A stretch of 64,000 bases of DNA from assembly GCF_026571515.1 (NCBI RefSeq), contig NW_026851649.1:1-64000 (forward strand), written 5' to 3'. Below are positions 3,579 to 60,890 of the stretch, in pieces. Origin of the DNA: Ruditapes philippinarum (taxonomy: Eukaryota). The notes under the pieces are model-generated. The model worked only from the letters and a program-made list of their open reading frames with translations, ran no database searches and was not told the DNA's origin. The translations under genes and the position numbers were made by a program. How positions within the stretch are numbered: position 1 is the stretch's first letter; every line of letters starts with the position of its first letter.

Positions 3579-4481
3579 ATGGTACGAGACAGACTGAAAG
3601 AGTTACAGGAAAAACATGAACAATTTTGCAAGAATGACAACCACCAGACAGAAGGAGGTAAAATTGTCGCACGTTATTCAAACTCTGAAATACAACTTGA
3701 CTTATGTCTCCATAAAGTGACACAAATAAGTAAAAAGATAATCGCAATAACAAATGACGTAGAACATTTAGAGCACCTGCAAAAAGACATCATAGCAAAT
3801 CCATTATTAGATCACAACGAAGTTGTGCGGCTCGAAAGATCGTCTGATGTAATATTCAATACATCGGCTGCGATACAGAAAGAAATAAGTGAATATCGAG
3901 CAGAGGTGGTTCAGATGCAGATGCAAAAGTCTCACGAAATTGTGATTAAGAATCATCTAAACAAATTAGAAAGTGATTTAACAAAAGCGAGAAATGATTT
4001 CAGAGCGGCACAAGTAGATTATATAGAAAAGACCCAAAAATTACATCAGAGGGAGTACGACATAATGACAGGACATGATGATGATCACCATGACGACCAT
4101 GACAAAACCCACTCCCCATTACCTGCAGAGTTCCTAGGTGATTATTTTGTCCAGGCCGAGGATGCAAAAGCAGAACTACGTGAAATCAAGGCTAGAGATA
4201 AGCAGATAAAGAAAGTTGAAGAAAGCGTGATTCAAGTGAATCAACTATTTAAAGAAGTTAATAGTTTATTAAAAGAGCAAGGGGAAAAAATTGATACCAT
4301 AGAGAAACATGTGGAGAACAGTGTGGACTATGTGCAGGAAGCAAATGTTGGATTAAAGCAAGCAAAGAAATACCAGAAAATTACGAGGAAACATAAAATA
4401 TATTGTGTGGGTGTTTTAGTGGCTATATTAGCCGTTACTGTACTTCTTGTTGTCATAGTGATTACTTCTCAAACAGATTAA
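3579..4481 (+). CDS. Syntaxin-1-like Qa-SNARE (t-SNARE), complete and intronless, 300 aa, C-terminal TM anchor
   Basis: The N-terminus MVRDRLKELQ resembles syntaxin-1 MKDRTQELR. The SNARE motif IKARDKQIKKVEESVIQVNQLFKEVNSLLKEQGEKIDTIEKHVENSVDYVQEANVGLKQAKKYQKITRKHKI aligns with syntaxin-1A [72 protein letters not shown]. A hydrophobic tail IYCVGVLVAILAVTVLLVVIVI precedes the stop. The whole protein sits in one ORF. A (GTTT)n run and a TTCTTCCAG acceptor-like site lie upstream (3330-3385), so a 5'UTR intron is possible. Confidence 0.85.
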   Translation: MVRDRLKELQEKHEQFCKNDNHQTEGGKIVARYSNSEIQLDLCLHKVTQISKKIIAITNDVEHLEHLQKDIIANPLLDHNEVVRLERSSDVIFNTSAAIQKEISEYRAEVVQMQMQKSHEIVIKNHLNKLESDLTKARNDFRAAQVDYIEKTQKLHQREYDIMTGHDDDHHDDHDKTHSPLPAEFLGDYFVQAEDAKAELREIKARDKQIKKVEESVIQVNQLFKEVNSLLKEQGEKIDTIEKHVENSVDYVQEANVGLKQAKKYQKITRKHKIYCVGVLVAILAVTVLLVVIVITSQTD

Positions 4482-7639: not shown

Positions 7640-8530
7640 CGACTTTTTTAGTGCTTGCCTATAAAACAAAACTTTGACAGTTAAGGGCACACAAGACTTT
7701 AACTAGGAATTTCTAAGTACAAATCAAGAAACATTTTCACAGAGTTATCTTCTCTTGCTTACAGATAGGTCTCATGATGGCACATAAGAACTCCAACTTC
7801 CAAAGTAATATCTCAAATGGTTAAGTCAACAAGTGGACAAGAATGAAAATCTTAACTGAGTTTCTAAGTCAAAAAGGGCCATAATTCAAATAAAATCCTT
7901 AACAGAATTACCTTCTCCTGCCCATGTTTTGGGACCATGATGGTAAACAAGTATTCCAACTTTCAAATTAATATCTCAAACAGTTCAGTCAAAAAGTGGA
8001 CTGGTACTAAAAACTTAACCAAGATTCTAAGTCGATAAAAGGCCTTAATTTTTAAAACAAATCCTTGACAGAGTTACCTTCTCTTGCGTACAGATGGGGG
8101 TAATGATGTGAAATAGCATTAAAAGTTTCAAAGCAATATCTCAAAGGGTTAAGGCAATAAGTGGATTTTACCCATATTCAATGTATTTTCTAAGTCAAAA
8201 AGGGGCATAATTCTGTCAAAAACCTTGACAGAGTTATGTCCTCTTGTCTGTTGATGAAGGTCGTGATGGTAAACAAGTATGGTCAGTTTCAAAGCAATAC
8301 CTCCAATGGTTTTGAAATAAAGTGAGGTGGTACAAAAAACTTAACCAAGCTCAATACACTTTCTAAGTCAAAAAAGGGCCATAATTCTGTCAAAAACCTT
8401 GACAGAGTTATGTACTCTTGTCTGTAGATGGAGGTTATGATGGTGAACAAGTATGGTAAGTTTCAAAGCCATACTTGTAATACTTCTGAAATAAAGTGGG
8501 GTGGTACGAAAAACTTAACCAAGGTGTGAC
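7640..8530. repeat. Internal tandem array of the hAT element, ~166-bp monomer (about 5 copies)
   Basis: Marker CTAAGTC(A/G)A(A/T)AAAGGGCC recurs at about 7865, 8029, 8190 and 8362. Confidence 0.8.
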
Positions 8531-30351: not shown

Positions 30352-32657
30352 TAATTTATAATTGTGATTTACATGTCATTTTACATGACCATTGATTGGA
30401 AATAAAAGTTTTTCTATTCTGTTCTGTCACAAAGATAAAACTGGTATGATATGCAGCAGTATTATAAATTAGTTCATGTAAAAATGTTTAGTAGGTTTGT
30501 TTATCAGTGTTGATGTCAATTTCTATTCTCAGTTTTGTCATTTTTGACCATCGCTACGAACTTACTCCTGGTTTCTCATCTACTCCCAGAACAATGATAT
30601 ACATTGATGCTTCTTTGAAATGTTTGTATGACAAAGTATACAACCTTAATAATTGTTCTTAATGAAACTGTTCCTCATAACGATTTCACAACATTGAGCG
30701 TTGCAAATGGTGATCATTTGTAACGGGGAACAACTCTTCTTCCCTTTTTGTTATGCACGAACAAAACAGATATCGTCATCATCTTCAAATCTCGCAGATC
30801 GTATCGATTTACATATACGTATAATAATGGTATACAATGTATGTAGTGTATCTGCTATAATGTATCGTGTACTGTGATATCGCAGATACTCTGGGTCAGA
30901 GCTGACCCAATTTTTTTTTTTTTTTCATTTATTTGATATTTGAAGTATAACAATATCCCCGTACTGCCTCTTTCTGATCAGCTGACATATTTTTCAACAA
31001 TAACTGACAGTGAAATTATATATAAAAAAAATTATCTTTCAATTCTGCAAATATTATCATTTCAGCTAATAAATGCACCAACTTTTTAAAATTTTACTTG
31101 AATTATTACTATGAATCGAGGACAAATCATTACTGACCCATTTTCCTGTTCTTCAAAATTTCGCAACCACTTTTCAATCAGTTAACAAAATATAAACTGT
31201 ACCACATAAAAAATGTCATACAATGTTAAAATATAATTAGTTCTGTATTTTGGAGAAATTTTGACAAACTCAACTTCAGATAAATGGTAATAAACAATTT
31301 TAACCTAATTATAATGCCGTTTTTCAATCTAGATATTTATTTGCAGTGGTAAAGCTGTCACAATTGGGGTATGGATGTACATTTCAATTTGCATAACAGA
31401 AAAAGCATGTTCTTGTGAAATTTTTAGGATCTTAGGGTCTATATGACCCCATTCTAGTGACTGCTTACTGAAAAGTTATCACAGAGAATGTTTTCCTTGG
31501 TTAAGTGACTGTTACTTTACTGATGTATTACCTTCCAATTAAGAAATGTATGGTAAAATATGTACATATTAAAATTACAGCTTTTGAAGTGCAGTATACA
31601 TTATGACTTCATGATATTGAAACAGTTGTCCAACTTAATATCCATTTCTGCAGACTGACAAAAAACTGAGTCTGTATATCAATTATTTTTAGAAAATTAT
31701 TGCGATTTGTAACTGTGTAAATAAAGGATTAGTGGAAAACACACGTTTTACATATTTTGAACTAATTGCTAGCATTTTCTTTTTTTATCGCCTAAATTGA
31801 CATTGCTGCTGATAAATTTAGTCAAGGGGAATACAAGATGTGCTTACAGTTTGGTTACATGACAAATAAGGTCAAAAATAAAAAATTTCTAGGGGTGATT
31901 GAAAAGTGGTTGTGATTGAAAACTGGCAGTGTGTGGATACAAACATACATATTAACATACAATTCATAGACTTATACCTATAATTTCAAAAACAAAAAAA
32001 AACTACATAAGTATGAAAAACATCCATTTACTCCATATTTCTACTATATATTTTATCATTTCGAATAATAGAAAGAGTATTTCAGATAAAGGGACTGAAA
32101 ATTTAAAGTACATGTATATTCAAAGACATTTTAACATTATTTGGAGAAAGGGAGAATGAAAAAAAGAAGGAGTTTTGAAGTATATTCAAAAATATTTAAC
32201 ATTATTAGGTGTAAAAATAAGGAAAGAGAGAGAAAAAAAACAACAAAGAAAATGTCAGAGAAAAATATACATACACAAACATACACACAGACATTCAAAA
32301 AGATACTTTTTTCCTACATACATACAAAAACATACATACAATCGCAAAAAAAGATACAAACAAACAAAAAAAAGGAACAAGCGAGCTAATTTCAATTAAT
32401 TTTCTTACGTTTTATGGTTTTGAAATTATTTTTAACTTTCTCTTACTGTTGGTTTGTAGGTTAGAGCGTTAAACAAGTTACCCCATTTTTGTTTGTGTGA
32501 TTCAACGTTATCATTTAGAAAAGCAATTTCCTCTTCAATTTGTATTTTCAATAGGAAAAAGTTTTTGAAAATATCAAAAGTTGGTTCATGCTTTCGGTAT
32601 TTCATTTTAAGGATAAAATATTTCATAAGTATGATGATATAATTTACTAAAATACTA

Positions 32658-34517
32658 TTAATATTGTTTTTCAGTTCTCCAAAAAAACACTGTTTCTAAA
32701 TTATATGAGAAAACAATATTGATTGATAAAAGAAAAGAATGTAATTTTGACCATAAATTTTGTACAATAGTACATTCCCAAAAAAGATGGTAAAGCGTTT
32801 CTAAATTGCTACCACAAAAATCACATAGATTTGAATTACAAAGGCTATACTTAAATAACATTGTATTAGTTGGAATAAGTCTATGAATAAATTTGTATTG
32901 AAAATTTCTCAATGACACGTCTGTAGTACTTTTAAATGGAACCATATATATTTTTTGCCAATCCAACTCAGTTTCTATTTCTTTTTCCCATTTCTCTTCA
33001 TTTGTATTTTTGAACCTTTCATCATTTTCAAGTTGAATATTATATAAAAGCTTATTTGTAGATTTTGATTTTTTAACTTTATTTAGGAGTGTATCTTGTA
33101 CTTTGTTATAATTTCTTGTAGATTTCAGACTATTAAGATATCCTTTTGGTATATTATTCACAAGCGTGTAATATTTTAAAAACTCAGCATTTTCCATACC
33201 ATAGATATTTTTAAGGTCTTCAAATTTGTAGAGTTCATTTTTCCTATAATCATATAGATGTTCTAAATATAGAATACCTTTTTGATGCCATGTTTTATAG
33301 TACACCAATTTATTATCAATTTTAATATTCGAATTATTCCATATTATTTGTTTAAGGTTATCTTTTTTATTATTGTGTTCTTGTTGAATATGAAACCATG
33401 ACGAAAGCACATTGTTTACAAATGAATTATGAGGAAAAAGCTTATTGATATCTGATTTCGAAAGATTACAGTCAAATATAAGGTCATTTCCATATTGTTT
33501 TATCTTTTGATTTATAAAAAGTTTCCATAATCCTTTATTGTCCTCATTTATATATCGTTTGACCCAATTTGCCTTTACTGCATTTAAAAAATTATTAATA
33601 TCGATCATTTTTAAACCACCATTTTTAACATTAAGTTTTAATGTTTTACGTTTGATTTTTTCTGGCTTGCCATCCCAAAGAAACAAAAACATTGCTTTAA
33701 TTATTTCTTTTATCTTATTACTTGATGGGTTTTCTAAAACTGAAAATGGATACAACAGTTTAGGTAAGGCAAATGTTTTTATTACCATCACTTTACCCAT
33801 AAGGGTCAGTTTTCTGTGTTGCCATTGTTTTAAGCAAATAAAAAAGTTTCTTAGTTTTGGTTCTAAATTTATATCTGTATTTATTTTGTAATTAGACGAG
33901 AAAAGAATACCTAGAGTTTTTGCTGAATCAGATGTCCAATTGAATTTTTTATATTTACAATGTTCTATATCACTTTTTGTGAGCGATCCCACTCGTAGAA
34001 CTGTGGATTTTTTTGTATTAAGTTTTAAACCAGAGATTTTGCTAAATTCCGTTATGACATATACAAGTTTTTCAAAAGACTTCACTGATCCATCATTAAC
34101 AAATGTTGCATCATCTGCAAAAAAGGATTGCTTTATTGTTTTGTTCGCGATTTCTATTCCTTTAATTTCACTATCTTTTTCTATGAAATTTGATAATATT
34201 TCTATACATAAAATAAATAATGAAGATGATAATGGACATCCCTGACGTACTCCCCTTTCTATATTAAAAGACTCTGAAAAATGTCCATTATTGATAACTA
34301 TACTTGATATATCAGTATAAAAGATTTTAACCCATTTTATAAGATCTTTGCCAAAATTAAATTTATTCAGTGTATCAAATATAAATTGATGGCTTAGACT
34401 GTCGAATGCTTTTTCATAATCAGCAAAGAATAATAAACCCGGTTTATTTTCTTTCTGCAGATGTTCAATAATTTCAAAAATCAGCCTTACATTTTCACCA
34501 ATATATCTATTTTTCAT
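32658..34517 (-). CDS. LINE ORF segment 3: reverse transcriptase and C-terminal domain (619 aa open)
   Basis: GENVRLIFEI...YEKAFDSLSHQF...FADDATFVNDGS... Confidence 0.85.
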   Translation of the reverse strand: MKNRYIGENVRLIFEIIEHLQKENKPGLLFFADYEKAFDSLSHQFIFDTLNKFNFGKDLIKWVKIFYTDISSIVINNGHFSESFNIERGVRQGCPLSSSLFILCIEILSNFIEKDSEIKGIEIANKTIKQSFFADDATFVNDGSVKSFEKLVYVITEFSKISGLKLNTKKSTVLRVGSLTKSDIEHCKYKKFNWTSDSAKTLGILFSSNYKINTDINLEPKLRNFFICLKQWQHRKLTLMGKVMVIKTFALPKLLYPFSVLENPSSNKIKEIIKAMFLFLWDGKPEKIKRKTLKLNVKNGGLKMIDINNFLNAVKANWVKRYINEDNKGLWKLFINQKIKQYGNDLIFDCNLSKSDINKLFPHNSFVNNVLSSWFHIQQEHNNKKDNLKQIIWNNSNIKIDNKLVYYKTWHQKGILYLEHLYDYRKNELYKFEDLKNIYGMENAEFLKYYTLVNNIPKGYLNSLKSTRNYNKVQDTLLNKVKKSKSTNKLLYNIQLENDERFKNTNEEKWEKEIETELDWQKIYMVPFKSTTDVSLRNFQYKFIHRLIPTNTMLFKYSLCNSNLCDFCGSNLETLYHLFWECTIVQNLWSKLHSFLLSINIVFSYNLETVFFWRTEKQY

Positions 34518-34530
34518 AAAACCAGTTTGA

Positions 34531-35883
34531 TTAAAACTTATTATAGACGGCAGAACTTTTTTTTATTCTATTTGAAATTGTTTTTGTTGCAAGTTTATAA
34601 TCAACATTGAGCAAGCTTATTGGTCTCCAATTTGAAATATCTGTAAGATCTTTATCCGGTTTAGGAATAAGGGATATTATTCCTTGTCTTTGAAGTGTTG
34701 TTAATTTTGAAGTATCAAAAGAGTAATTAATGGAAGCTAGATAATAGTCTTTTATGCTATTCCAAAATAATTTATAGAATTCAACTGTTAAACCATCAGA
34801 TCCTGGACTTTTATTATTTTTCATTTCTGATAAAGCTATTTTACATTCATATTCATTAATTTTCCCTTCACATGTGATCTTTTCTTCTTCATTTAATAAT
34901 TTTATATCTGTATCAAAAAAATTAATATTTGAGTTTTGAGAAGTTCTATATCTATACAAACATTCATAAAAGGATTTTTCTTCTTTTAATATTTCTTTTA
35001 TTTCTGTTATTTCTTTATTTTCTACTTTTAATTTATGTATAACTTTTTTCTCGGCTTGTCTTTTTTCTAAGTTTGCAAAATATTTACTATTTTTTTCGTT
35101 ATGTTCTACATGAATAGCTCTTGCTCTTAAAATTGAGCCATTTACACGATATTCATAAATTTCATCAAGTTTTTGTTTTTTTAATAAAATTTCATTTTTT
35201 AACTTATTTTCATCTTCACTTTCTTTATAGGAATCAATTGTTAGTATTTTTTCTTCTAATTGTTTTATTTCATCGATCAAATTTAACTCTTGTTCTTTTT
35301 CTTTCTTTTTCTTAAAACTTGCATAACGTATTGTTTCATTTCTTATTGCACCTTTTATTATTTCCCACAAAGTATTTGGATTTGATGTTTTATTTATTTC
35401 TGCTGTTGTTTGAATAATTTCTTTAATTTGACTTTGATAAACTTCATCTAATAATAAAGCACTGTTCATTTTAAAGTATCCAGGTCCTTTTTGCATTGCA
35501 TTATCATTAAATGTCAAAGTAACTAGAGAATGATCTGTTTTAAAGCCATGTGAAATATTACTTTTTGAAATGATGTTTCTAAGCGAATCGGATATAAGAA
35601 AGTAATCAAGTCTACAGTATATGACTGGTTTTCCATTAGAGTGCCATGTAAATTGCCTCTTTTCAGGGTGTTTAAAACGCCAAATGTCAATTAGATTACA
35701 TGTTTCAATTATGTTTTTTATCTTATCTCTACATTTTCTACTTGTATGAAGATTTCCATTCTTTTTATCCAAAGATGTATTAATTACTGTATTGAAATCG
35801 CCACCGATTAAAATGTTCTTGTCGTCATTTTCAAGAATAAACTTTTCAAGTATATCAAAAATATATATGTTATCATCATTTGG
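34531..35883 (-). pseudogene. LINE ORF segment 2: AP-endonuclease C-part, linker and RT N-terminus (same frame as segment 1; ends at homopolymer frameshift)
   Basis: ...GGDFNTVINTSLDKKNGN...YCRLDYFLISDSL...ISNWRPISLLNVDYKLATKTISNRIKK. Confidence 0.75.
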
Positions 35884-36222
35884 TCAATAAATATTAATCA
35901 TTGTGAAATCCTTGTCATTTATTTTTACATCAATCATTATTAATTTTCCTATAATCAATTCTTTTTTATTTAAAATTTTAATATTACAATCGTTTTTAAT
36001 CAAAAATGCAACGCCTGCTTTGTTAGATTTATTTCCACTGAAAAAATGTGTGCCATTCCATTCATTTTTCAAAGGTTCATATGGATTTGTTAAGTGGGTT
36101 TCTTGTAACATATAAATAGAATATGGTTGTGAATCCAGCCAATTAAATAATTGTTTTCGTTTTTGACTATTTCCTAACCCTCTAACATTTAAAGTAATTA
36201 TTGTAGTTTCCATGAAGAGCAA
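35884..36222 (-). CDS. LINE ORF segment 1: AP-endonuclease N-terminal part (ends at in-frame TGA)
   Basis: MLFMETTIITLNVRGLGNSQKRKQLFNWLDSQPYSIYMLQETHL... Confidence 0.8.
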   Translation of the reverse strand: MLFMETTIITLNVRGLGNSQKRKQLFNWLDSQPYSIYMLQETHLTNPYEPLKNEWNGTHFFSGNKSNKAGVAFLIKNDCNIKILNKKELIIGKLIMIDVKINDKDFTMINIY

Positions 36223-36822
36223 ACCAACCTCATACTTAAAAGTATAAAACCATAATACACAAAAAACAAAACCAGCTCACCTATTAAACTGAAAAAAAAA
36301 ACAATTACGAAAACAAACTGTTGATTGTTTTTCATTTACATGTAATGTGATCCATATATTGCTAACCTCAAAAAAATATACAAAGTAGACTTTAAAAAAG
36401 TGACAGAATTATAAATGCAATTTTATTAAGCAATCAATATATGTGCTCTTTTGCTTACTCTTATTTTTTAACTTTATATAGTATGCTTTTTATTACTTCA
36501 ATATAATAAACTTCAGTAAATAATGCTTCCACAAATAAAACAAAAATATTCTTAATTGGATACATTTAAATGTAAAACTCATGTTAACTTGTTATCTATT
36601 TTATAATTATCCATAGTGTATTTTATTACTAAAATTATTAAAGTTGTTTCTTATACTTTAGAAGTATACATACAATTTCCATGTATATTAGTTTAGTATT
36701 TAACTTTTTTCTTTTTGCTCCGTGGTTTTAAATATTGTACCGCAAAATTCGAAAGTTGTATTGAGAAACAACATAAGTGAGAAAAAATAACCTTTTGAAT
36801 GTGTTCTATTAATAATAGAAAA

Positions 36823-36925
<103 letters not shown>

Positions 36926-37564
36926 CAACAACAACAACAAAAAACACACAAAATACAATCTCTTGCTTATATGCCTTTTAAAGAAAAATGAAAAGTCGAA
37001 AAGAATATAAAATACATACGACATGGATTGTAAAACTAATGGTATTGTTTTTCTATCTATGTCACTTATTTTTCATAAAAAAATCTGAAAAGATTAAAAA
37101 TTATAGTATCAAATATTTTATCATCAATATTAAATACGATAAAGTAACAATTTAACCTTTTGAAAAGTTAGAGTAAAAAACTAACCTTATTATAAAATTT
37201 TTTTGCTGCTACAGTTATACCAGTAATTATTATTAACATTTTAATTTATTACCTGATACCTTATATAAATGTAATTTGTTATTATTTACTGTTTTCTGAA
37301 ATTCTAAAAACGTCAACGTTCGCGAACTGTTGACCGGTCAATAGTTTCGACTGTTTCCCTCGCGTGCTCTGAAGTCATTGACGTCATATCATAGAGGATT
37401 CCCACTTGAAGAGTCCATCGATCTTGATCATAAACCAGACGTGACGTGACATAGTTAAAATATTAAGTTTAATTATTAACATAATATTATGTGCAAAACT
37501 ATTTTCTTGTTCCTTTTTTTCTTCTACAACTACTGTTAAAACAGTAGTTGATCAGGTAATAAAA

Positions 37565-37738
37565 CAGTTATTTCATGCTTGATTTGGGAACAGTCAAACA
37601 ATTGTCCTTCGGTGTCGGGGATAGTGTTTTGAACTGTTGCCCTCGGCCTACGGCCTTGGGCAACAGTTCAAAACACTATCCCCGACACCGAGGGACAATT
37701 GTTTGACTGTTCCCAAATCACATATGAAATAACTGTGT
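37565..37738. repeat. Near-perfect long hairpin (foldback element), arms ~80 bp with a 12-nt loop TCGGCCTACGGCC
   Basis: GGGAACAGTCAAACAATTGTCCTTCGGTGTCGGGGATAGTGTTTTGAACTGTTGCCC pairs with GGGCAACAGTTCAAAACACTATCCCCGACACCGAGGGACAATTGTTTGACTGTTCCC with one mismatch. The outer extension TTATTTCATGCTTGATTT pairs with AAATCACATATGAAATAA. Confidence 0.85.
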
Positions 37739-37739
37739 A

Positions 37740-38240
37740 ATAATATCAACCATTAATCGTCTAGATTTTACCAGTTGGATAACCACACCCTTCAACAAGT
37801 ACCAGAGAGTCATAATATCCGACGACCTGAAATTGAGTACCCATATAAGCAAGATTACTAAGAAGGCAAAGTCTACTCTAGGATTTCTAAGAAGGGACCT
37901 GGAATACGGTCCTGAATCTTGTTGCAAAACAGCATTCCTGTCTCTGATACGCTCTACCCTGGAATATATTTCGATCGTCTGGAATCCATATCTCCAGAGA
38001 GACATTGACTAGCTTGAGAAGGCCCAGAAACAGTCCGCTAGGTTTATTACAGTCGACTTTACCACCAGGTCCCAGTGTGCATCCCACAAATGCTTTGTGA
38101 AACTACAGGTCTCCATTCAAGGACCGAAGGAAAGCAAACAGACTGACGATGTTTTATAAGGTGGTTGGGGGCTTATTTCAGCCCTGCCTTTCCAAGACTA
38201 CTTAATTGACGCCTGTCCGAGTAAACATACGAAGAGTGAA
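37740..38240 (+). mobile_element. CR1/L2-like LINE 3' fragment (RT C-terminal domain), frameshifted
   Basis: Plus-strand translation ...GFLRRDLEYGPESCCKTAFLSLIRSTLEYISIVWNPYLQRDI...LEKAQKQSARFITVDFTTRS... This matches the conserved CR1 tail R.TLEYCS.VW.P....DI..LE.VQRRA.R.I. Confidence 0.6.
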
Positions 38241-53949: not shown

Positions 53950-56720
53950 TTTCTTAAACGAGTATGATGTACTGTAGAGAAGCGTTCACCTTTAATGAAA
54001 AATGAAGGAACCGATGGGGATTTAAATATTTTTTTAATGTTTGCTTTAAAGGAACGGAGGGATTCTGATTCACGTATTTTAATTGGAAGTTTATTCCATT
54101 GTTGTAGTGCTGATGGTAAAACGGATTTCGAAAAAATGTCTGTTCTTCTGACAATTGATGCTTAGTCTTTACTGTTTGTTAAAGAATATGGGTTTTCATG
54201 TGCATATTTCACAGATGGGGGAAATAATTGCATTAAATAAAGTGGTACCTAATAAATTGTTTTTGCCTTTGTATATTAAAAATAATTTTTGAATATGTCT
54301 CCCATCTGAAAGCGAAACCCAACCTATTTCTGTTAATAATGTTTGTATAGTAACGGATTTTGTCAATTCTGTAACAACACTGGCAGCTTCATATTGATAT
54401 TTTTCTAATGTTTCTTTCTCGTATTGCGCACAGTTATCACAGACTAACGATGAGTATTCTAAATGTGGACGTAAATATGATACATATATATTATTAAGTG
54501 ATTCTCTTTTAATTTTGAATTTGAGCATTTTCATGGAACCGAGTATTTTAGAGGCTTTAGATACTATGTTAGATATATGTTGATGCCAAGACCAATCTTG
54601 ACTAAATGTGACCCCAAGATGTTTATGATGTTTGACAAAATTGAGTTGTACATTATCAAAAAATAATTGTGTATGATCATATTAAAAAAAAATTAAAAAA
54701 AGATTGCTTCGGTTTTTGCCGAATTGAAATTGACTAACCATTGCTTAGACCATCTTGTTATTGTCGCTAGATCCTTTTTTAACGTTTCTTCCATAAAGGT
54801 TATGTTTTTTGAGGACACAGAAAGAGAACTGTCGTCTGCGAAAAAAAGAGTCTAGTAATACTTAAGAGTGAGTCTGCTATGTCATTGACATATATTAAAA
54901 ATAATAATGGACCAAGTACTGAGCCTTGAGCAACGCCCCCTTCTAAAGAAGAAAATGTCAAAGATACGAAAACTTTTTGGGTTCTGTTATTTAAGTAGTC
55001 TTTTAACCATGTATTTAGTTTCCCTTGTATACCGTATTGCTTTACTTTGAAGATAAGACCAGAATGCCAAACTCTATCGAATGCTTTAGAAATGTCACAA
55101 AAAATAACACAAGTAGATTCTTTGCTGTCAAATGTTTTGCAAATTTGGTTATATATATCAATAAGTTGATACTCTGTAGAATGACCTGGCATAAACCCGG
55201 ATTGATTTTGATATATTAAAGAATTTGTATGGAGATAATTATAGAAATGTTTAAAAATTATGCGTTCCATTATTTCACCAACACAGCTTATTAATGAAAT
55301 TGGTCTATAATTTGATGGTTCGTCTTTATTAACCTTTTTAAAAAGAGGCATAACATGTACCAGTTTCCAACTGCTAGGATAATAACCTTCATTTTACGAA
55401 TAATTAAAAAGTATAGACAGTGGAATAAGTTTCTTTCAACATTTTATGGCTTATTTCGTCTAGTCCAGAAACTTTATTTATAACTAAATTTGTTAATACA
55501 TCTTTTATTTCTTGTTCACAAACATTAAAGTTTTCTAGTCTTGAATTTGCATTAAAACTAAAGTCTTGAAGTTGGGTATGTGAATCATCCAACTGTGAGA
55601 TTGAACTGAAGAAGGAGTTTAAAGTATTGGCTTTGTCTAAGTCTGATAAGGAGAATGTGTCATTATTATTTCTTAAAGGTGGTATAGAATCGTTTTCAGC
55701 TGAATTATTCTATCTAACATTTTAACTTTTTTCCAATATTGTCGAGGGTTTGAGCTATTGAGATCATGCAAAGAAAATTCTTAACTATTGTATAATAACT
55801 CTTTTGCGTTTTTCCGTTTTTCTTCATATTGTTTACTTTGTTTCGAATGTGTTTATATTAAGTCCAATCTGATGTTTTATTACTGTTTATTGCCTTGTGA
55901 AATAATCTGTCTCTCTGCCTTAAGCTTTTACGAATATTTCTGTTAAACCATGGCTTATCTTTTGGCCAAATTAATGCAAAATACGACGGGATGCACTGAT
56001 TAACTAAATCCATGAATTCTGATGTAAAAATATTGCAAGCTTCATTTATATTTTAATTATTAATAAAGGTCCAGTCAGTATCTCTTATTAAATTATTGAG
56101 TTTAACAAAATCTGCTTTTTTATAGTTCCAAATTTTCCTTTTAAATTTGAATCGAAATCAACCTTTAAATAAGCTAATGTTTCATAATGGTCACTTATTT
56201 CATTATCTGTTTCAAAAACTCCTGAATCAAAAACTTGAATATTGTTTGTTAATGCGATAGGCTCGAGAAGAGTTTGCGAATTATGGATTACCCTAGTCGG
56301 GCTATTAATAATATTTTTCATGCTATTTGTCAACAGTGTTTCTTTCAATTTATGATTTTGCATCTTGAGCTGATTTTCATTTACATCTCCTACTAATATT
56401 AAGTGTTGTTTGTGTTCCAGAGCCATTCCTAAGCATGAGTTTAATTTGTCCAAAAAGTCAAATCTATACTGAGGAGGTCTATATAATGACATAATTTAAT
56501 AAGTCTGATTTTTATCTTTTATTTCAACCCAAATAGAATCAGGAACTATATTTTCAAAGGAGACAACGCAATTGGGTCTAAGAAAAGATGAAACGTAAAC
56601 AAGAATCCCTCCCGAGCGACACGACTTATCTTTACGAAACATTAAATTAAAACCCGATAATTGTAATTCTTTATCTTCAATATTAGAATCTAATTTGGTC
56701 TCAGTAAAACATAACACATA
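53950..56720 (-). pseudogene. Degenerate CR1/L2-like LINE copy (APE + RT, multiple frameshifts)
   Basis: Minus-strand ORF fragments are APE at 56717-56088 (LCFTETKLDS..., LILVGDVNEN). RT lies at 55592-54800 (NYRPISLISCVGEIMERII...SKAFDRVWHSGLIFKVKQYGIQGKL...GVAQGSVLGPLLFLIYVND). The RT tail lies at 54534-54196 (RPHLEYSSLVC...LEKYQYEAASVV). Confidence 0.75.
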
Positions 56721-57399: not shown

Positions 57400-60300
57400 A
57401 TACAAGTTTATCTTTCATCAGAGAGGTCAACAAATTCTGGGCCTTATGTTACGTGCTTTTTCTAACATAGGTAACCTAATGTGCTCATATGCATTACAAG
57501 ATAAATAATACATGTTTTTTACATTCAACTGTAATTTTACATATTGGACATATCCTACTGTCAACAGCAATGTTTTCATATCTTACCAGTTTCAAGCTTA
57601 ATGGGAGCTACTCCACATCTGAATTTGGCTAGTGCAGACATGTGTTTACGTGGCAAATATAGTTTACAATAATTTTTTCAGTTTTATAATCATTTTTTAA
57701 CAACTTATAGGTTCTTAATTTATTACCACCATTCCCATTTAGACTAACATTCCTATTAAGCTTAGCTATCCATTCATCTTTATAACAATGACATACATTT
57801 TTGAACAACTTTTTTCACAAAAGACTTAGATGAGACTGTTGCACAACCACGTGCATACTCTACTAAATTTAACTTTTTCCATATATTATTAAATATAAAT
57901 TGCCAGTTTTTTACACCTATTGCTGCTTCTTGCGCAAACAAGTAGAAAAGATCTTATAATTAACTCTATTTACATCCATTCTAACAAATCTATGCCATTG
58001 TTGACATACAGATCTCCATTGTTTCACATGTGTAGGCTGCCAAAGCTAATTCTCCATATAAAGCTGCTGTATGGTGTATACCGCCCTACCCCAGATAAAA
58101 ACGCATTGCCTATTTCTGTATCGCATCAATGCAGGAGAATGACTTATTACCCCAAATAGAAGCACCATATGAAATGACTGGCCAAACCATTGAATCATAC
58201 AATTTAACAAATACATCAATATGGCATGGACCCTAATGCTTTTGATTTGGCAATAAGTAACCCCCAGTGCTCTACCTGCACTTTGAGCTATACATTTAGC
58301 GGTCTTATTATAATCAAGAAACTCATCAAGTAACAGACCAAGGTAAGTATATGTGTCCTACAAGTTTTTAGACTATGATCACCACATGTGAAGACAAATG
58401 AGGATCTGCTGGCCGACTGCGACCCTAAAGTGAATAATGTTGCTCTTTATCATGATTTACAATCATAGCATTTGATGTACACCATTTAACAAAACATTAA
58501 GCATAAGTTGAAGATCATTTTCAGTTTCAGCTACAAGAAAAATGTTCATCAGCATATAATAAAATGCAAACCTTATCATTATCTATATCAATTCCTTTAC
58601 CAATAGCTTTAATTTTTACAACAAGATCATCTATAAACAAATTAAACAATAAAGGAGATAACGAACACCCTGTCGGAGCCCACATTTTTACATCGAACCA
58701 TTCTGTTGTAAGGCTATTTATCCTTACACAAGATGAAACTGAGTTATATAATGACTGTATTGCTGTAACATATTACCATGGAAACGCTTATTATCTAATT
58801 TGTTCCATAACAATGATCTGTCGATAAAGTCATATGCCTTACGGAAATCAAATGAATGCACAAAAGGTTGATAAATTTCTGTTTCTTTCTAGTTTCTACA
58901 ATATTAGTTAAAGATGATAAATGATCAATGGTACTAGGCGACCTTTCCTAAAACCATTTTGCTCATCACTGAGTATATTATTAGATTCTGCCATTTTGAT
59001 AAACGGTTATTCAAAATTGTACAGTATATCTTATACATGGTGCAAGACAATGACAAGCCTCTATATGACAATGGATCTCTTGGATCTACAGTACTTTATT
59101 TCGGTATAGGGCTTATTATATATCTTATTCCATGCAGAAGGAATAATTCCTTTTGAAAAACAGATATTATACAAAATATGAAGAAAAACACGGAGCAATC
59201 ATTTTTCAAGATTTCCATAGGTATATATTATCACAACCCCAGGCTTTACCATTTTTAGCCTGTTTTGACCGCATTAAACACTTCTAAGATAGATATATTG
59301 TCGTTAAAATTTCTGTATTGTCATTCATATGATTACCACTAGGCACAAAATTTCCAGTATTTGTAGTATTAGGACTATTAAAAAGCTTGCTAAAATCATT
59401 TTTCCATTTCTCAAGAACAGTGTTAACATCATTTGAAACACCATGTTCAGTAATAACTTCCATAGGTATTTGTCTACTTCTTGACTGTGAAACACCTACC
59501 CTGCCAATGGTTTTCCAAAATTCAGTCTGGTTACTTTTGCAATCTGACAATAAATCATTTTGCAAACCTACCCAGTATTGACGCTTGCTTTGCTGTACCG
59601 CCTTATCAAAATTCTTTCTCGCAGAAATAAACCGAGATTTAAGTACTGATTTTTCAGCACGCATATTACATTTAAGCCAGTTGCTTTCAGCATCGCAGAC
59701 AGTATTCCAAAGGCAAAGATAAGTTGTTATTCCACCATGGTTTCCCTATTTTTCTTTTCTTATTAGACGTTCTACTGTTAACTTTAATATTCTTAAATGG
59801 AACTTTACTATACATTTCATGCCTAATATTATGACAAATATCTGCATATGCAGTATCTACATCACTTAGCTCTTGTAAACTTTGTTCTAGTTTAAAAATA
59901 CATTGGTGAATACTATTTATTACATCATCTGAACACATAAAATTTTCGGGAATACCCTTTAAATCAAACTTATCAATTGTAACATTGGCATTATGACTTC
60001 TGTCGGGTTGTTCCGCAGGGTTTTCACATGAATTCCCTAACTGCACAGTCCATGATAATACAGAGTGATCCGGAATAGACACAGCAGACAAACCATTCAC
60101 TGTACTTATCTCATCTATAAGCTGTGTAGACCTTTTGACTGTGAAGTTAGAAAATCTATGCAAATACTCGTGTTGAACTAAGCAATAGTCCACTACAGAA
60201 CATCCTTTAGTGGATACAGAGGTAAAATCATTGTTATCACTATTTCTACCATTAAGAACACACATATTACTGTCAATAAGAAAATCTATTAAAACAATCA

Positions 60301-60890
60301 CCATACATATTTGACTTATAATCAACAATATCTCTTTCAGGTAAAATTATCAACACCAACAATGTAATCAAAATTATCACCAATACGACTATTTAAATCC
60401 CCGCATATGAATAACATGCATCATTTTGAAAACATATAGATACCAGCTAAAAGATTGTCATAAAATCCTGTACATCAGTTTGTCTTGACGAATTAATAGG
60501 TGGTAAGTAGCATACACAAGCATAAAATTTTTCATTTGAGATTTTACTTTCAAATTTCAACCATAAAATACCATCAAAACTGTCTTCAACAATATTAATG
60601 TCATACAGGTTTAATAAATCATCTTTAATAGAAGAAACCCACACCCCCTGACCCTGATCTTGCATTAACATGAATATTTTTTCTATTATTTCCAAACCAG
60701 GAGTAACCAGATAAATTTATATAGCATCATTATCTCTAAGATGTGACTGAACTATAACCTAAAATATCAAATCTAAAAATAGAGCACATTGTTCCCCTAA
60801 CATAAAAATTATCACTATTTTTGCACAACACTCCAACCATTAACGTTTCAAAACCTATTTCTGGCCTATCTTCCCTTTGCTGCCATCCCC

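Follow-up and report, generated by a model that had tools for sequence, protein, structure and literature searches.

How close to a working retrotransposon is the long, interrupted reading frame on the minus strand of this 64,000-nucleotide (nt) stretch of Manila clam DNA (Ruditapes philippinarum, contig NW_026851649.1, positions 1 to 64,000; hereafter the window), and to which group of long interspersed nuclear elements (LINEs) does it belong? The initial annotation described a young, RTE-like LINE lying two mutations away from an intact open reading frame (ORF) of about 3.57 kb, or 1190 amino acids (aa). The analysis reported here makes it likely that the element is a dead, very little-decayed copy of an autonomous non-long-terminal-repeat (non-LTR) retrotransposon of the L1 superfamily, most probably of Tx1 type. 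As a genomic locus it is a routine, well-preserved, pseudogenised LINE whose frame is both longer and, as assembled, more often interrupted than had been thought.

Three-frame translation of the interval 36300-32300, followed by repair, placed the LINE ORF on the minus strand at 32432-36213, where the protein-like reading passes successively through all three frames. Frame 0 opens at the ATG at 36213, with an in-frame TAG 24 codons upstream, and gives way to frame 1 at a run of eight A residues (T8 on the plus strand, 34557-34564); frame 1 in turn gives way to frame 2 at a run of seven T residues (A7 on the plus strand, 32681-32687), and frame 2 ends at the TAA at 32434-32432. Deletion of one base from each of the two runs produced a 1,259-codon ORF, which amounts to 3.78 kb and 1,259 aa once all three lesions are repaired. 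The repaired frame contains two stops, a premature TGA and the terminator; in the remaining five frames of this DNA the count is 46-180, and the LINE ORF is therefore no chance feature. Its parts, with the evidence for each, are:

32432-36213, minus strand: interrupted single LINE ORF encoding AP-endonuclease (APE), reverse transcriptase (RT) and zinc domain (translation, repair, Pfam, 99% coverage by intact homologs)
36211-36213, minus strand: ATG start codon, reading METTIITLNVRGLG... (homolog alignments start at residues 1-3)
35521-36198, minus strand: AP-endonuclease (EEP) domain, aa 6-231, with NVRG, QETH, GDFN, RLDY and TDHS present (Pfam, ORF2p alignment)
35884-35886, minus strand: lesion 1, premature TGA at codon 110 in an NIY-G-PN motif, which reads N-I-Y-stop-P-N (translation, homolog column)
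34557-34564, minus strand: lesion 2, +1 frameshift, an extra base in the A8 run (repaired reading compared with homologs)
33909-34668, minus strand: reverse-transcriptase domain, aa 516-768, FADD intact (Pfam, ORF2p alignment)
32751-32936, minus strand: C-terminal zinc-binding domain zf-RVT, aa 1093-1154 (Pfam)
32681-32687, minus strand: lesion 3, +1 frameshift, an extra base in the T7 run (six T residues in the relative L007, tblastn, homolog length)
32432-32680, minus strand: third-frame end of the ORF, its final 83 codons, with the TAA at 32434-32432 (repair, homolog coverage, L007)
32340-32431, minus strand: start of the 3' untranslated region (UTR) (weak similarity to the L007 3' UTR, about 71% column identity, low complexity)

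The codon interrupted by the first lesion was examined in a comparison set of 89 full-length homologs of 1,200-1,290 aa, in which it specifies Gly in 65 and Ala in 24; Gly is found in all of the closest homologs shown. Because of this column the ancestral codon is read as GGA, and the TGA most likely arose from it, as far as the aligned sequences indicate, by a single G>T change. An alternative genetic code that reads through TGA was considered and rejected: the host genome is an animal nuclear one, the homologs have Gly at this site, and the frame contains no other in-frame TGA. The second lesion lies in the sole 8-nt homopolymer of the ORF. Once one base is removed from this A8 run, the reading continues from ...NRIKK into VLPSIISFNQTGFMKNRYIGEN..., in agreement with homologs such as P0013 (...NRIKKVLPTLILETQTGFMKGRYIGEN), and the repaired stretch across the lesion as a whole, NRIKKVLPS..QTGF, agrees with the homologs as well. 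These two interruptions of a single minus-strand frame had been recorded in the initial annotation and both hold: the TGA is the only internal stop of frame 0, and removal of the extra T from the plus-strand T8 run restores a homolog-like reading.

The third lesion had been overlooked. The extra base in the A7 run of the plus strand masks the last 83 codons; past it, the reading runs on through ...TVFFGELKNNINSILVNYIIILMKYFILKMKY...KWGNLF... up to the TAA at 32434-32432 and does not end at a TAA/TAG at about 32658. A tblastn search against the window recovered residues 1141-1259 in the third frame, and alignments with intact homologs of 1,247-1,254 aa extend over 99% of the repaired protein (1,259 aa). 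L007, the closest relative found, has T6 instead of T7 at this site and reads in frame as TVFFGELK. Because homolog lengths, the third-frame match and the T6 of L007 all point the same way, the ORF is given as 3.78 kb and 1,259 aa with three lesions, in place of 1190 aa with two. As assembled, the copy is incapable of retrotransposition, its ORF being broken by the GGA>TGA nonsense change and by two +1 slippage frameshifts in homopolymers.

It is possible, though doubtful, that both frameshifts are assembly or consensus errors and that the real locus, carrying the TGA alone, is a single substitution short of an intact ORF. Such a reading modifies the three-lesion one and leaves the identity of the element unaffected. 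Both +1 events sit in the longest homopolymers of the ORF, which has six runs of at least 7 nt (43 of its 3,782 nt), the A8 run being unique, and the chance of two randomly placed indels both falling in such runs is about 1e-4. Genuine replication-slippage indels also favour homopolymers, however, so that location alone cannot discriminate, and L007 bears a frameshift of its own nearby, indicating that such lesions occur, or get assembled, in the family of this LINE. One published long-read Manila clam assembly was made from 25x PacBio RSII reads with wtdbg2 and short-read polishing, and is contig-level with an N50 of 183 kb and a GC content of 0.32, figures that suit the 72.5-kb source contig and the GC of the window, which may come from that assembly (PMC9803972). 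Reads of that type are prone to errors in homopolymer length, and polishing with short reads cannot be relied on within repeats. If both frameshifts were such errors, the sequence would place this locus one base change from competence.

With the three lesions repaired, the protein showed the complete domain set of an autonomous LINE ORF: Pfam returned Exo_endo_phos (6-228), RVT_1 (516-768) and zf-RVT (1093-1154). A motif scan and alignment with human LINE-1 ORF2p (PDB 9K6G, 8UW3, 8SXT, 8C8J; endonuclease 1VYB) confirmed the earlier claim that the catalytic FADD (aa 698-701, 34110-34121) and the APE active-site motifs are intact. The RT motifs DYEKAFD and RQGCPLS are also kept, and a Cys/His motif of the form CX2CX8HX4C (CDFCGSNLETLYHLFWEC, 32772-32825) reads CDFCG...HLFWEC at aa 1130-1147. 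Endonuclease, RT and Cys/His motifs all align to the matching positions of the human protein. Indeed, human ORF2p is collinear with the repaired protein over nearly its whole length (query 3-1183 to 7-1182, E=6e-109); R2 proteins match the RT core alone (450-925, at 1e-29). The likeness to human ORF2p extends to the catalytic motifs (N14, the E in QETH, GDFN, SDH/TDH and FADD), to overall size (1,275 aa against 1,259 in the clam) and to the presence of a Cys/His motif near the C-terminus, although in the human protein this motif is spaced CX3CX7HX4C. The relationship is a distant one, with similarity at the level detected by HMMER, and the clam copy further differs in having no ORF1 upstream and in residing in an AT-rich invertebrate host.

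Several relatives retain the ends of the element. L003, L004 and L005 have a common 320-nt 3' UTR with a poly(A) end, beyond which their flanks are unrelated. L001, which is truncated about 6 codons into the ORF, has a 13-bp target-site duplication (TSD), AAGATTTGTTTTC, on both sides and a 10-nt poly(A) (L001 positions 3990-4007 and 7990-8010); its gene call starts at a spurious TTG in flanking DNA. L007 shows 77.4% nt identity to the clam copy over 2,112 nt (ENA ERZ23491064, scaffold KRUG19-2_SAMN08776908_METAG-scaffold_75818, a metagenome assembly). A frameshift of its own precedes the position of the window's third lesion by about 15 codons, and its first 127 nt are unrelated. Judged by sequence divergence, L007 is a different family and not a sibling, because dS between the two is about 1.25 (dN/dS 0.12). 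From what is seen in the family, the LINE RNA would be translated into an APE-RT-zinc protein whose endonuclease would nick an A/T-rich target; the polyadenylated RNA of the element itself would then be reverse-transcribed from the nick (target-primed reverse transcription), leaving a poly(A) tail and a TSD of about 11-13 bp.

The collinearity with ORF2p, the post-RT region with its Cys/His domain, the poly(A) tails and TSDs of the relatives and a survey of bivalve genomes are the grounds on which the element is filed in the L1 superfamily, probably with Tx1. In that survey, which covered 27 bivalve genomes, Tx1 was the sole clade recovered from the L1 superfamily, and L1-Tx1 elements were present in 35 of 39 mollusc genomes and are listed there with the most widespread LINEs of molluscs (PMC10294476). 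Mollusc L1-Tx1 LINEs, such as the 14 RepBase L1-Tx1 entries of Crassostrea gigas, share with the clam element the bivalve host group, the order APE, RT, Cys/His within the protein and, through its relatives, the poly(A)/TSD style of insertion. They differ from it in that no ORF1 was detected in the clam copy or upstream of several relatives.

Turning to age, we infer from the state of the ORF that the copy inserted recently. Between 4 and 6% of random substitutions in this AT-rich ORF make stops; for one nonsense codon in 1,259 the divergence of maximum likelihood is about 0.5%, and a Poisson bound puts the probability of finding at most one stop under about 0.05 at neutral divergences above 2-3%. 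The copy violates none of 55 invariant columns of the homolog alignment, 2 of 92 columns conserved at 97% or above and 3 of 139 conserved at 93% or above, the mean violations of intact homologs being 0, 0.6 and 2.96, respectively. It is gapped in just 2 widely occupied columns, compared with a median of 6 in intact homologs, and has no internal deletions. The dN/dS of 0.12 against L007 implies that purifying selection acted on the lineage through nearly its whole history, until recently. The description of a near-intact APE+RT copy with very little decay is thus upheld. Of the claim that the element is young, the part that rests on slight decay (a single nonsense codon, preserved conserved columns, no internal deletions) stands, while the tail and TSD expected of a young insertion were not found.

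That shortfall is among the points that weigh against the proposed identity and age. Searches of the flanks gave no detectable poly(A) tail, TSD or defined 5' and 3' ends for this copy, and the missing tail and TSD speak against youth because a very young canonical insertion is expected to show both. Exact k-mer comparison of the flanks returned chance-level A/T-rich 9-11-mers only, a model-based scan for an A-rich tail with a 10-14-nt repeat after it had 0 matches against 0.3-0.6 in shuffled sequences, and the UTRs showed no more than noise when aligned to those of the relatives, a weak GT-rich similarity excepted. Recency, moreover, is read from internal evidence, with no sibling copy at hand: BLASTN and TBLASTN found no second copy in the window, and protein and contig collections that apparently lack the clam genome gave no match above 72% aa or 77% nt identity. 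The best identities in the protein searches were 53% at full length, 72% for the C-terminal part and 55% for the N-terminal part, and a scan of JGI metagenome contigs yielded one relative, at 33%. Exact look-ups of the window's ORF pieces returned no record, and for the syntaxin-like protein of the window no contig was listed either. Since the contig collection therefore does not include the clam genome, this absence of siblings is uninformative. Placement with Tx1 instead of L1 proper is indirect, being drawn from the bivalve surveys. Finally, no ORF1 was seen upstream, where no ORF of at least 60 aa is open other than frames that cross a (TA)48 microsatellite.

Two ORFs are the rule in classical L1 and Tx1 elements, and the lack of ORF1 bears on whether the copy was ever autonomous. 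It might derive from a longer L1/Tx1 element with two ORFs and have been 5'-truncated and dead on arrival, incapable of autonomous movement whatever its later lesions. Curated bivalve L1-superfamily consensi average 5.85 kb, more than ORF2 and short UTRs would occupy (PMC10294476); the empty upstream region would fit such a truncation, and L001, cut at about codon 6 and flanked by a TSD, is a precedent for it within the lineage. Against this, the ORF begins at its own ATG with a complete N-terminus, and no same-strand ORF1 was called upstream of intact relatives belonging to at least three families, in 4 kb of L009 and L010, about 0.85 kb of L011 and the last 520 nt of L003 and L004. L001 likewise has none within 4 kb, but is itself 5'-truncated. 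We consider a dead-on-arrival origin unlikely. The lineage may be single-ORF, or the copy may be truncated upstream of ORF2.

The single ORF, in which APE precedes RT with no ORF1 upstream, is what gives the element its resemblance to the RTE clade (RTE-1, BovB, RTE-X), the group to which it was first referred. RTE proteins are reportedly about 1,000 aa long, encoded by elements of about 3.2 kb, and lack a Cys/His domain. Their 3' ends consist of short tandem repeats without poly(A), and a long post-RT region with a Cys/His domain is an L1-type trait. The clam LINE, at 1,259 aa, extends about 490 aa past the RT and includes the zf-RVT Cys/His domain in that region; its collinearity with L1 ORF2p is complete, taking in the APE-RT interval and the post-RT region; and its relatives terminate in poly(A) with TSDs instead of short tandem repeats. 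Although RTE-X elements are plentiful in bivalves (PMC10294476), membership of the RTE clade is highly improbable, and the RTE-like label has been dropped in favour of L1/Tx1. As for a relic of great age or a frame open by chance, for which the undetected tail and TSD are the sole point in favour, the near absence of stops in the repaired frame, the roughly 9-11 nonsense codons expected at 5% neutral divergence (probability of at most one, <0.005) and the retention of all 55 of the family's invariant residues leave next to no room for it.

For the repeat catalogue of the Manila clam, the L1/Tx1 assignment adds one well-preserved locus with its classification and anatomy corrected, which is of little import beyond annotation. 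The family itself may be undescribed, given that the nearest database sequence is 77% identical at the nt level, and active siblings of the copy are plausible. It seems conceivable, but is offered tentatively, that the element belongs to an undescribed, ORF1-less L1/Tx1 branch with a wide distribution among bivalves, and that this branch continues to transpose in the Manila clam, where intact masters would occupy other loci. Should intact siblings be present, this bivalve of commercial importance would harbour an active LINE family, which could supply insertion-polymorphism markers and help in studies of the mobilisation of short interspersed nuclear elements (SINEs). The apparent lack of ORF1 across the lineage would be of modest interest for LINE biology.

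Many homologs, at 35-55% identity, trace to marine bivalves, among them Dreissena polymorpha proteins and the bins of metagenome-assembled genomes (MAGs) of lucinid symbionts. Five GenBank proteins attributed to bacterial MAGs (P0016 and P0023, near full length; P0040, P0073 and P0378, partial) are 38-50% identical to the LINE ORF and are labelled Candidatus Thiodiazotropha endolucinida/taylori, Sedimenticola sp. and Thiolapillus sp. They are almost certainly LINE contigs of the clam or invertebrate host that were mis-binned into the symbiont MAGs.

The DNA on either side of the ORF contains several repeats. Just 3' of it on the minus strand, 32210-32380 is a low-complexity tract, rich in T and G and containing (TGTA)-like repeats, within which a 22-nt tandem repeat occupies 32326-32380; the tract resembles the GT-rich block of the P0002-family 3' UTR in composition and position. 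Farther downstream on the same strand, a direct repeat of about 27 nt occurs in two copies, at 32114-32141 and 32180-32206, about 66 nt apart (AATAATGTTAAA..TTTGAATATAC). On the 5' side, the (TA)48 microsatellite is perfect (36826-36921, 100% matches) and lies about 610 nt upstream of the LINE ATG, in 5' UTR or flank. Beyond it, a 183-nt near-perfect hairpin at 37559-37741, with 90-nt arms that are 91% complementary and a 3-nt loop, has the look of a foldback or miniature inverted-repeat transposable element (MITE) and limits the possible 5' extent of the LINE.

Elsewhere in the window, a second, unrelated and far more degraded LINE lies on the minus strand at 54803-55351 and 56091-56492. It is 27% identical in aa sequence to the element studied here and contains an RVT_1 fragment (E=2e-25) with the motif GFMPGHST, together with a weak Exo_endo_phos_2 fragment whose E value of 3e-4 is under the Pfam cut-off. 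A 213-aa ORF at 59687-60328, also on the minus strand, has no Pfam match; its ...SIPDHSVLSW... segment looks like the C-terminus of a LINE endonuclease, and by this resemblance the ORF may be a third retroelement remnant. On the plus strand, 3579-4481 holds an intronless 300-aa syntaxin-like gene, the ORF of which (3579-4478) is identical to R. philippinarum XP_060575273.1, a RefSeq protein encoded on a 72.5-kb contig; the exact match fixes the species of origin. A paralog in the same 90% cluster, XP_060569858.1, maps to another contig, and the syntaxin-like gene may have arisen by retrocopying or by recent duplication.

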